Assembly: GCA_964016885.1 (NCBI GenBank)
Contig: OZ024741.1
Location: 400,458,001-400,522,000, forward strand
Source of the DNA: Eledone cirrhosa
Lineage: Eukaryota
DNA length: 64,000 bases
Direction of reading: 5' to 3'
The notes below the pieces were generated by a model, which worked only from the letters and a program-made list of their open reading frames with translations, was not told the origin of the DNA and searched no databases. Each line of letters starts with the position of its first letter. Within the stretch, counting starts at the first letter, position 1. The translations under genes and the position numbers were made by a program. Below, piece after piece: positions 3,310-54,316 of the stretch.

Positions 3310-3899
3310 CCTCTCTCTCTCTCTCCCCCTCTCTCTCTCTCTCTCCCACTCTCTCTCTCTCCCTCTCTCTCTATATATATGTATATATAAATATATATAT
3401 ATATATATATAAATATTTACACATACACCAATTATAATTCTCTGGACATGCTTTACTCTATAGTATATATATATATATATATATAACAATATTCACTGAA
3501 CCAGAACAATTCTCCCATCCAATTTCTCTTGACCATTATCTTTTACTTGTCATAAAATTCTCTAAAAAGGCTACAGAATAGATTTCCAAATAAGGGCGCG
3601 GAAATTTAATGAAAACTTGTTCACGTGACAGCCATAATTTCATTTATAACCAATCAAATTACGTTTATTAAAAAAAAGCCTTTGTGTGCCCCCTTTTTTT
3701 AAGTAAAAAGAAATTCAAACACTCATATATGAAAAAAACAACCTGTGACCCCCCCTGTTTGAAGAACTTTGTAACGCGAACTGGCGCAAAATTTATTATA
3801 ATTATTGACCAACCAATCAAATTACTTCTCGAAAAACCTGGCATTTCGAGCCACTTTTTCCATATAAAACAAGTAACATTCAGAGACCAACCAGATGTG

Positions 3900-4038
3900 A
3901 GAAAAACCACAGACCCTCCATCTCAACTCTATTTTTGAAAAGCAGAAGAACTGCGAAACCGGTAAAGGAACCAAATAAATATATATATTTTTTTTTAAAA
4001 TAAGACTCCAGTTGCATTTTTGATTTCATCTTTTTTTC
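3900..4038 (+). repeat. Dispersed ~130-bp repeat, copy 1
   Basis: aaaccacagaccctccatctcaa...gactccagttgcatttt also at 6107-6230. Confidence 0.8.
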
Positions 4039-4099
4039 TTTATACTTTCACTCGTGTAGGACACCTCGGTTATTTTTCATTTTGTAAAAAAAACCTCAC

Positions 4100-4167
<68 letters not shown>

Positions 4168-4278: not shown

Positions 4279-4333
4279 ACTGCCTGAAGAGGTCACAGCC
4301 AAAGATGACTGTCACTGAAATATATATAGCAGT
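4279..4333 (+). ncRNA. Minimal type I hammerhead ribozyme motif (family 2) followed by AATAAA
   Basis: actgc-CTGAAGA-ggtcacag..ctgtcact-GAAA-tatatATA-gcagt; stem I actgc/gcagt is perfect; aataaa at 4334-4339. Confidence 0.85.
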
Positions 4334-7675: not shown

Positions 7676-8089
7676 AACAGGGACAGAACAGAGAGGCAGT
7701 ACAATAAATGTTTATTAAATTCACGCTCAGGAGAGTGGGGGGTAGGTGGGGGACTAGAAAGAGGGACTTGATGTCTAGGGTGAAGAGGAATGGCTGAGGG
7801 CCGGGTAGATAGGTGAAGGAGTCGAAAAGGCGCAGGGCGTGGTTGGTGTCGGAGATGTGGGAGGGGAGGGTGGTGACAAGGGGGGCGAGGAGGGAGTCGA
7901 GAAAGGCGGAGATGAGTTCGGTGGGGCAGTTGCAAGCGGAGACGATGGGGCGGCCGGGGTTGTCGGGTTTGTGGAGTTTGGGGAGGAAGTAGATGGTGGG
8001 GTGCGGGGGGTGCGGACGATGAGGTGGGAAGCGGTGGGGGAGGAGGGAGGAGGCGATAAGGTCTTTGATGGTGGAGGAGATTTGTTGTT

Positions 8090-12271: not shown

Positions 12272-12472
12272 TTAGTTATACTATTTATGGTTATGTAAAC
12301 ACAAAACCTTAAGCAGTTGTAAGTATTTTACACACACCCTAAATAGTGGTAGGCAGTAATGTATTACTACCTTATTACCAGTAAGTTAAGTAGCTCAATG
12401 TAAAAACATCAGATGATTTACAGAGCAGTTATATGAAATATAAGAATCAAAGAACTGTTCAAAACATTATTG

Positions 12473-12519
12473 TGCTTACAGCTGTTTCCTCCAAACCGAG
12501 GTTTGGATTCTTCGGAGCA
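12473..12519 (-). ncRNA. Type I hammerhead motif, U4C variant (family 4)
   Basis: Mirror copy of 12530-12576. Confidence 0.65.
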
Positions 12520-12529
12520 ATTTATTAAT

Positions 12530-12576
12530 TGCTCCGAAGAATCCAAACCTCGGTTTGGAGGAAACAGCTGTAAGCA
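12530..12576 (+). ncRNA. Type I hammerhead motif, U4C variant (family 4)
   Basis: tgct-CCGAAGA-atccaaac ctcg gtttggag-GAAA-cagctGTA-agca; palindromic stem III ACAGCTGT. Confidence 0.68.
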
Positions 12577-12728
12577 CAATAATGTTTTGAACAGTTCTTT
12601 GATTCTTATATTTCATATATATATATATATATATATTTATAAATGGAATAGAATGAAACGAAATTTCATTTCTCACTCTTAGTACGGCACTTACTTAAAT
12701 GTATGTATGTATGTATGTATACGTACAT

Positions 12729-13341
12729 GGTGGCTGCCAACTCGTTTTCGAGTCCGGCCACTACTTTATATCCATGTAGGAGAACTCCTACCGATGCGCT
12801 GAACAATTGTGACTTTTTAGTCCAGCCAGCGACTTGAAAACTCTGGTACAAACACTACACTTGTGACAATTATTGACACATAGTACTAGGCCCATGGTAC
12901 CATGTGACGACAAGTGCAGAGAGATCTCCAGATATAAAGCAATGCCTGTGCCGTGAAGCTTTTATAGTGAGCAAAGGCACTGCACAAAGCCAGTCCCACT
13001 CTCTTAACCAAGATGATATTTACCAAAAAGAAGAACAAGTCAACATCATTGGATACCATCAGAGTTGCAGGTGTTATATCAGAGTTTTCCTTCTCCTAGA
13101 ATTCTGCCTTGACAAAGGCTAAGGGGTCATCTCTCCCGGTGATTTTGGATGGCCATTGACTCTTAAGAGCTCCTTTGCCCTTTGACAGGTTTTGTTTTTA
13201 GTCCTGCAGGATGTCCAAAGTCACCCTCCTCACCAAGAAACCTTGGTAGGGTTGTCAGTTTAGTCGCCAACGACCCGACCATGAGACAGGTTGTACTGGG
13301 ATACATGTTACTAGTAGCACCAACTGGTGACCTGACATAAT
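12729..13341 (-). mobile_element. Probable RTE-like LINE 5' UTR fragment
   Basis: rc contains ctaggagaaggaaaactctga, a motif I recall from RTE 5' regions; 13143-13341 is homologous to 56952-57150. Confidence 0.55.
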
Positions 13342-13567
13342 GTATACGTACATACATATATGTATACGTACATACATATATGTATACAGACGTACACTAG
13401 TATACATATATATACATACATGCACACATATATATATGCACGTATCGGTTTACCGAACATTTATTACAATGCTCGGTTTGTTTGTTTCTAAACAAATAAA
13501 CAGCCCGAACTACGCCGTACAGTGTTGAGGCAACCACGTCACCTTTTTGTTCAACACTGACACAGGA

Positions 13568-13610
13568 ACGATGTACTAGTTTCAAGCTTATTAGCTATCG
13601 TCAGCATCGC
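13568..13610 (-). ncRNA. Minimal type I hammerhead motif (family 5)
   Basis: rc: gcgatg-CTGACGA-tagct aata agctt-GAAA-ctaGTA-catcgt; palindromic stem III ACTAGT. Confidence 0.88.
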
Positions 13611-13962
13611 ATACCTTCCTGCCAGATAGTTGAACGTCTGAAAGTATATGCTTTCCTTATGCATATTAACGGCTGAGCAGCCCAATTTGCATATCGAGTG
13701 CGTTCAGTCGGCCGGGCACACCGAAAACGATAAATGGAATAGAATGAAACGTGTTGAACAGAAAGGTGACGTGGTTGCCTAGACACTGTACGGCGTAGTT
13801 CGGGCTGTTTGTTTGTTTACAAACAAACATACCGAGCATTGTCATAAATGTTCGGTAAACCGATACGTGCATATATATATGTGTGCATCTATGTATATAT
13901 ATGCATACTACTGTACGTCTGTATACATATATGTATGTACGTATACATACATGCATACTTAC

Positions 13963-14006
<44 letters not shown>

Positions 14007-51194: not shown

Positions 51195-51673
51195 CGTACA
51201 GTGTTTAGCAACCATCGTTGCCCTTTTTGTCCAACACTGACAAAGGAACAATGTACTAGTTTCAAGCTTATTAGCTATCGTCAGCACCGTATACCTTCCT
51301 GCCAGATGATTGAACGTCTGAAAGTATATACTTTCCTTATGCATATTAACGGCTTAATTCAGGATGTTTGTTTACAAACACACCGAGCATTATAATAAAT
51401 GTTCGGTGAATCCATACGTACATATATATATGTGTGCATGTATGTATAAATATACATGCTACTGTACGTCTGTATATATATATGTATGTACGTATACATA
51501 CTTATATTTAAGTAACAGCCATACTAAGAGTGAGAAATGAAATTTCGTTTCATTTTTTCCATTTATCGTTTTCGGTGCGCCCGGCCGATTAACTCACTCG
51601 ATATGCAAATTAGGCTACTCAGCCGTTAATATGCATAAGGAAAGTATATACTTTCAGACGTTCAATCATCTGG
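51195..51673. mobile_element. Second copy of family 5 hammerhead element with a different inversion breakpoint
   Basis: Homologous to 13515-13960 and 12640-12700; 51302-51354 is inverted at 51621-51673. Confidence 0.85.
51248..51290 (-). ncRNA. Minimal type I hammerhead motif (family 5)
   Basis: rc: acggtg-CTGACGA-tagctaataagctt-GAAA-ctaGTA-cattgt; stem I maintained through G-U pairs. Confidence 0.85.
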
Positions 51674-53974: not shown

Positions 53975-54316
53975 ATCATCATCATCATCATCATTTTACG
54001 TCCGCTTTTCCCTGCTTCCAAGGGTGGGACGGGAACTGATTCTGGCTTGATTTCTACAGCCGGATGCCCTTCCTAACACCAACCTCATTTACAGTGAGTG
54101 CTGGGTGCTTTTTTGCCGTGGAACCTCCACGACCACTTTACAGTGGAATGATAGGGACCTTAGTCCCTATCATCTCATTTCTACAGCTGAGTAAACTGGA
54201 GCAATGTGAAATAAAGTGTCTTGCTCAAGGAAACAACACATCACCCGGTCTGAGAATTGAACTCACAACCTTTCGATTGCAAGCCCAATGCTCTAACCAC
54301 TAAGCCATGTGCCTCC
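53975..54316 (-). mobile_element. Full-length SINE family A
   Basis: Reverse complement closely matches 1957-2305, including A and B boxes. Confidence 0.92.

Follow-up and report, generated by a model that had tools for sequence, protein, structure and literature searches.

A large retrozyme family in the Eledone cirrhosa genome, likely moved by Penelope proteins

Introduction

Non-LTR retrozymes of animals (PMC7229834; Li 2026, bioRxiv 10.64898/2026.07.22.740005) are described as low-GC, head-to-tail units of a few hundred bases that carry a type I hammerhead with a palindromic stem III and no conserved open reading frame, and that lie dispersed as monomers to multimers alongside coding Penelope elements. 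Pairing of the palindromic stem III between two copies is the dimer arrangement of Cervera and de la Pena 2014, and among Xenopus retrozyme dimers cleavage was reported for one of nine (Li 2026). In the same preprint, Li, Clavereau and Pollet argue that animal retrozymes are non-autonomous Penelope derivatives. Among the features of Penelope insertions, for their part, are (TA)n targets, partial tandems, an inverted arm truncated at its 5' end and a tail that is often confined to one end (Craig 2021, PMC8557442); the tail is the sequence that separates two internal starts of reverse transcription, extension takes place on both DNA strands, the Penelope protein is predicted to be a dimer, and hammerhead cleavage is dispensable for insertion in vitro (Frangieh 2024, PMC11167929). 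Natural hammerheads with a U10.1-U11.1 mismatch are also on record, U-U being called the best-tolerated mispair (Perreault et al. 2011, PMC3088659).

Penelope mobilisation of animal retrozymes has previously been argued from co-occurrence and repeat homology. Here, starting from two hammerhead motifs in a 64,000-nt stretch of Eledone cirrhosa DNA (assembly GCA_964016885.1, contig OZ024741.1, positions 400,458,001 to 400,522,000; hereafter the window), we describe what is likely a large further family of non-LTR retrozymes moved by Penelope proteins, its newness being judged from the literature rather than by comparison with Repbase or Dfam. Here the insertion scars themselves point to the mobilisation: their two-ended, (TA)n-targeted pattern matches that seen for a coding Penelope family in this genome, and the two arms divide the two start sites between them almost without exception. 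A literature search that left most subscription papers and preprint supplements outside its scope found no description of this family, nor of tails in retrozymes, and the word 'tail' occurs zero times in the Li 2026 preprint.

Hammerhead motifs in the window

Read on the minus strand, copy A (Table 1) starts with stem I and CUGACGA; a stem II of 4 bp capped by a 4-nt loop comes next, then GAAA, the palindromic stem III and the GUA of the predicted cut site. Stem II is closed by a U-U mismatch, and stem III is a 6-nt palindrome with a 2-nt loop, whose pairing is possible only between two hammerheads. Stem I has 6 bp, with 98% of cells paired and one two-sided change in the family alignment, and extends past an internal loop that is seen in both window copies and is a candidate for the loop I side of a tertiary contact with loop II. 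The original prediction of a hammerhead here, with an identical core in a second copy, is borne out on the minus strand: copy B carries an identical 31-nt core, and the letters quoted for stem I are correct, every pair being Watson-Crick or G-U. The argument built on these two copies fared less well. Their flanks had been described as diverging, whereas the shared block has 11 substitutions in 159 aligned columns (91% identity by BLAST, ~93% overall), and because the copies differ at so few columns a 31-nt identical stretch has P of about 0.11 and is weak evidence. Likewise, the pairable stem I changes had been read as compensation; the three differences, at 13610, 13607 and 13570, are transitions that alter one side of a pair each, two being letters rare in the family (1/55 and 2/56 copies), and probably record decay after insertion. 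We have dropped the two-copy argument as evidence on both counts. Rfam hammerhead models gave no match at the gathering score, nor at E<=5 in 13300-14000, the sole sub-cut-off matches being TA-rich microRNA models far below cut-off, and single-copy folding z-scores were unremarkable (−0.7 and −1.4 for copies A and B).

The host elements, numbered such that unit position 1 is the first base after the predicted cut, consist of pieces of a single unit that have been permuted and in part inverted, as had been proposed. Both arms of insertion A end at the proximal site, the right arm being covered by a BLAST match to 13950 with the remaining end read by eye, and 53 bp are identical in the left and right arms of insertion B. 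Neither insertion contains two same-strand hammerheads, and with one hammerhead per strand in each, neither could release a unit. The window copies are ordinary decayed insertions, atypical in their ends, and like most copies of the family they are probably dead ends.

Table 1. Retrozyme and Penelope features of the window, in window coordinates.
Feature	Position	Strand	Remarks
Type I hammerhead, copy A	13568..13610	minus	stem I to stem I exactly
Copy A, stem I arms	13610-13605 and 13573-13568	minus	
Copy A, core	13604-13574	minus	predicted cut between 13574 and 13573, after GUA
Type I hammerhead, copy B	51248..51290	minus	core 51284-51254
Copy B, predicted cut	between 51254 and 51253	minus	
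Insertion A, left arm	13345..13751	minus	unit positions about 256-430 then 1-224; 3' end at proximal ('short') site
Insertion A, right inverted arm	13751..13966	plus	unit positions 17 to about 215, into (TA)n
Insertion B, left arm	51200..51354	minus	unit positions 330-430 then 1-53; atypical end
Insertion B, right arm	51349..51673	plus	unit positions 54-382; atypical end
Third fragment	12639..12712	minus	bare unit 'tail' (positions 204-276); ends at distal ('long') site in (TA)n
Coding-Penelope terminal repeat	3875-4112	plus	U3-A8 hammerhead at 3935; ends at distal site in (TA)n

Insertion A is adjoined by a young repeat of ~620 bp (12724-13341) that is 95-97% identical to several loci and also adjoins a retrozyme in L095, L064 and L062. 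A near-perfect palindrome of ~190 bp at about 12430-12620, read by eye, ends in (TA)n and could represent a very small head-to-head insertion from a different family.

Family size and unit

Exact 31-nt cores number 10,046 in the 3.0-Gb genome, rising to 27,621 intact cores when N7, the 10.1/11.1 bases and loop II are left free, with zero matches for reversed-pattern controls in both searches. The first 100 matches fell into 61 clusters, among which 42 were single, 14 had at least two same-strand hammerheads and nine had hammerheads on both strands, all nine head-to-head. Apart from the Penelope loci, every locus read lies within the initial 47 Mb of contig C1. Over 36 tandem head-to-tail intervals, all of which join unit to unit without an open reading frame, the unit measured 420-556 nt; the monomer of roughly 470 nt that had been proposed lies inside this range and is not its mode, 17 of the 36 intervals being 420-433 nt long. 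Its GC content is 36%, and the longest ATG frame within one natural unit, of 68 amino acids, is crossed by frame-breaking subfamily indels. The arms of one insertion are a median of 4.9% apart and neighbouring units 3.6%, versus 14-15% between loci, and arms and neighbouring units in one insertion belong to the same subfamily. An all-versus-all comparison of flanks returned other repeats and, among the matches listed, no shared upstream body. The family is also present in contigs from four runs of unknown kind (three organisms).

In what sequence can test, the family appears to have every feature of the non-LTR retrozymes outlined above (PMC7229834; Li 2026): the type I hammerhead with its palindromic stem III, low-GC head-to-tail units of a few hundred bases without a conserved open reading frame, and dispersed monomers to multimers alongside coding Penelope elements. 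It differs from them in unit length, the RNAs reported in 2020 being about 170-400 nt (PMC7229834), in a stem II that closes on U-U, and in its high copy number. Stem II begins with the U-U mismatch of the U10.1-U11.1 variant (PMC3088659), but unlike in the published account of that variant, U-U is here the main form across tens of thousands of copies, and activity is predicted.

Variation in the hammerhead and unit structure

Since selecting on the core had to be avoided, copies were fetched by a flank motif (9,205 matches). From 91 matches, 63 remained after thinning to a single copy in any 5 kb, and of these, 56 span the hammerhead; among the seven dropped, one (L054) has a core deletion. 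Variants shared by at least four copies fell in none of 11 core columns versus 40 of 168 flank columns (p=0.056, borderline, and with columns that are not independent), and in none of 23 columns when stem II and the palindrome are added to the core (p=0.003, with the same dependence among columns). A post-hoc test on 27 columns (p=0.001) was set aside and is not relied on. The core letters themselves (CUGANGA...GAAA and the UH cleavage site) show five differences in 614, and the sites that do vary are those that a hammerhead allows, namely N7, loop II, H17 (A in 51 copies, U in five) and stem I pair 2.3/1.3 (G-U 28, U-G 13, A-U 13, unpaired 2). Position 10.1-11.1 in stem II, where most hammerheads have a pair, is U-U in 51 of the 56 copies, C-A in four and C-G in one. 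Rare changes reach the core too (0.8% vs 1.7% in the flanks), as expected after insertion. The original prediction would have failed had the core been no better kept than the flanks across many copies; shared changes instead avoid core, stem II and palindrome, and its conclusion of a retrozyme-like family, with a hammerhead under constraint that is predicted to cut after GUA and to need a dimer, is backed by these family-wide data, although the two copies on which it was based do not carry it. Because subfamily changes avoid these parts, the pattern would seem to need selection on hammerhead function somewhere in the cycle.

Structurally, 58 of 61 longer segments (three length outliers omitted, and core- and flank-picked loci mixed) give a 69-pair structure with 96% of cells paired. 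Cells with a two-sided change number 72, versus 19.8 in shuffled alignments (the structure being derived from these same sequences), and are located in stem I, in a helix around the long end and in a hairpin of 7 bp. The excess is marginal when counted as pairs with a two-sided change (8 vs 5.4, reached by 27 of 500 shuffles), and further pair types are not clearly above the control (141 of 500 shuffles). Folded as a circle, a natural unit has z=−7.5, which is partly owed to an internal TA-rich hairpin.

Insertion pattern

The strongest mechanistic signal, and one absent from the original prediction, is a Penelope-type insertion pattern. On the hammerhead strand, 5' ends scatter, as in 5' truncation, whereas 3' ends cluster near unit positions 217 and 272, two fixed ends ('short' and 'long') about 55 nt apart, and are followed by (TA)n. 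A TA run was present at 198 of 227 ends by a lenient test. Head-to-head insertions paired a short end with a long one in 30 of 33 cases among 96 loci and in 25 of 25 among 71 new loci, a total of 55/58 (p=1e-13 against a coin flip, with a motif-based caller) in which long plus long never occurred; insertion A of the window is one of the three exceptions. Unpaired ends were 55 short and 56 long. These counts supersede an earlier one (29/47 short plus long, 16 unclassified), in which BLAST ends stopped inside expanded TA runs and some TA-only clusters were included. Target-site duplications are masked by the (TA)n targets; a short duplication flanks a nested copy in L039.

Comparable anatomy is found in endonuclease-bearing Penelope-like elements of the Neptune/Nematis type (PMC8557442; PMC11167929), which share 5' truncation, partial tandems, an inverted 5'-truncated arm, an optional tail at one end that marks two start sites, (TA)n targets and a hammerhead upstream of the ends. 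Unlike those elements as described in these papers, the family has no RT/GIY-YIG frame, and its hammerhead, with a complete and extended stem I, is not of the minimal kind; its tail of about 55 nt compares with 30-40 nt in the Neptune/Nematis papers and 68 nt in this genome's coding family. Non-autonomous Chlamys elements such as MRC1 (Craig et al. 2021) are likewise non-coding, Penelope-dependent and inserted as multi-copy head-to-tail arrays, but in that account they share 3' sequence with autonomous partners and mostly lack canonical hammerheads, whereas here the hammerhead is conserved and no homology to a partner was found in the 40 Penelope loci compared.

Taken as a class assignment, a non-LTR retrozyme moved by Penelope is the reading to which we give a probability of roughly 90%.

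Template and proposed mechanism

Counted across the genome, copies that begin at the cleavage site are not in excess. Extending the search pattern by three bases beside the cut lowered the matches from 27,161 to 26,047 (−4.1%), and three further bases across the cut lowered them to 25,080 (−3.7%), from which we estimate any excess of cut-site starts at about 1% at most, with the caveat that sites differ in mutability. Copying passes through the cut site, whereas cut linear monomers would give starts at position 1, and the template is thus a circle or an uncut multimer, with both of which the genome sequence is equally compatible.

We lean towards a full cycle through a circle, a chain of steps that we hold to be somewhat more probable than its negation and that builds on the anatomy and on published analogues. 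Tandem arrays would be transcribed, and two hammerheads would pair their palindromic stems III, cut after GUA or GUU and release a 420-550-nt unit. Ligation would then close this unit into a structured circle. A nick made in (TA)n by a Penelope protein would allow reverse transcription to begin from either of two fixed sites inside the unit, about 217 and 272 nt beyond the cut; the fixed ends and the (TA)n target are observed, and from these we infer the protein. Copying that crosses the cut site, as the counts record, would yield 5'-truncated single, tandem or head-to-head insertions, with each arm of the last using one of the two start sites, in line with the rule seen among the loci.

The rival that survives best keeps the same family and the same Penelope machinery and makes the template an uncut linear multimer, with the hammerhead slow or serving another step and no circle formed. 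Besides the read-through of the cut site, which fits it equally, the U-U closure of stem II speaks for it, as does the dominance of unprocessed RNA as substrate in vitro (Frangieh 2024, PMC11167929). Locus L073 points the same way: its two arms share a rare change by which the stem III palindrome is disrupted, and they are 1.3% apart versus 5.8% to the nearest other locus, which suggests that a damaged template was still copied, or else that conversion occurred between the arms. Set against this are the subfamily changes that avoid core, stem II and palindrome, and the finding that related invertebrate retrozymes accumulate mainly as circles (PMC7229834), and we regard the uncut template as unlikely.

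More speculatively, the circular route could extend to a circular, viroid-like RNA that has a covarying structure of its own, no living pseudo-LTR parent and two Penelope start signals, one for each active site of the Penelope dimer. Loading on both active sites would explain the 55/58 rule, but we hold this picture only tentatively and would not bet on it. Long Penelope open frames in this genome, together with the published in vitro assay, make the role of the hammerhead and the proposed circular template testable.

Relation to coding Penelope elements

The genome has several coding Penelope families: 10,596 GIY-YIG candidates were found, of which 150 were scored and 40 loci read, RVT_1 and GIY-YIG appearing in two of the three frames scanned. 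One family combines a 938-aa open frame with RVT_1 and GIY-YIG, its own U3-A8 variant hammerhead and a pair of ends that lie in (TA)n and are separated by 68 nt, and it, too, has one end per arm (L147, L143, L096, L041 and L081). The Penelope open frames in L138, L139 and L140 are 938, 844 and 1096 aa long, and the family of the first two is young, given that they are 97.7% identical.

Compared with the 40 Penelope loci, terminal repeats included, the unit showed no similarity beyond separate nearby insertions and TA-rich matches. The link to Penelope is in this case the insertion anatomy, and pseudo-LTR homology was not found against these loci; by eye, the long end has a 14-nt likeness to one Penelope family's end. 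At L023:998-1815 (G000:C1:13811508-13812325), a Penelope hammerhead end is joined head-to-head to a retrozyme inside a single (TA)n run; the joint itself lacks a TA run, and (TA)n lies beyond each arm. This is a clean hybrid candidate and a lead, although deletion between neighbours could also yield it. Were the dimer-loading picture true, this locus would be the trace of a single event that copied two different RNAs, and would identify a partner. At L094:8227-9264, in a single case, the 3' end of a retrozyme arm is fused to the 3' portion of a same-strand Penelope open frame, through a template switch or a later deletion. L039, considered as a further hybrid, proved to be a nested insertion. 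Across 111 5' ends, the hybrid search gave L023 as clean and L061 as ambiguous, with none among 44 new ends.

Could the units be stray pseudo-LTRs of an autonomous Penelope family that escaped the sample? All their insertion features are Penelope features, the scored and read loci cover the fraction of candidates given above, and 24 of 57 Xenopus retrozyme families are homologous to Repbase elements, nearly all Penelope (Li 2026). However, the 36 tandem intervals join unit to unit without an open reading frame, and none of the 111 5' ends runs into a same-strand Penelope open frame upstream. In 117 loci and the window, tblastn returned scattered Penelope fragments and no RT plus GIY-YIG frame between repeats; the three fragments that were read each had their own terminal repeat and hammerhead. 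We consider this origin improbable, and the family is not itself an autonomous Penelope. Least probable is a DNA-level repeat (minisatellite, MITE- or Helitron-like) with the hammerhead as a passenger, for which tandem arrays, inverted arms and the silence of the Rfam hammerhead models could be cited, but which is largely refuted by the end pattern, with its fixed 3' and variable 5' ends, nine of nine inverted clusters head-to-head and the one-short-one-long rule, and against which also stand the G-U/U-G swaps that are sensible only on one RNA strand.

Other features of the window

Apart from the coding-Penelope terminal repeat, the window has other hammerhead-like motifs at 4284 and 6383 (plus strand) and at 2879 (minus strand), the one at 4284 beginning like the hammerhead of the Penelope family in L053 and L035, and an old fragment of a Penelope open frame at 7701-7997 (minus strand), 32% identical to the frame of L148. 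A sigma-70 scan was set aside as inapplicable to an animal genome. A tRNA-like match at 54250-54307 (minus strand; 31.2 bits, just above the Rfam cut-off) is possibly the head of a tRNA-derived repeat. Much of the window (14689-49546) is taken up by a strongly purine-skewed 35-kb satellite with a 42-bp unit in 833 copies at 82% matches, which has 168-581 stops in each of the six frames.
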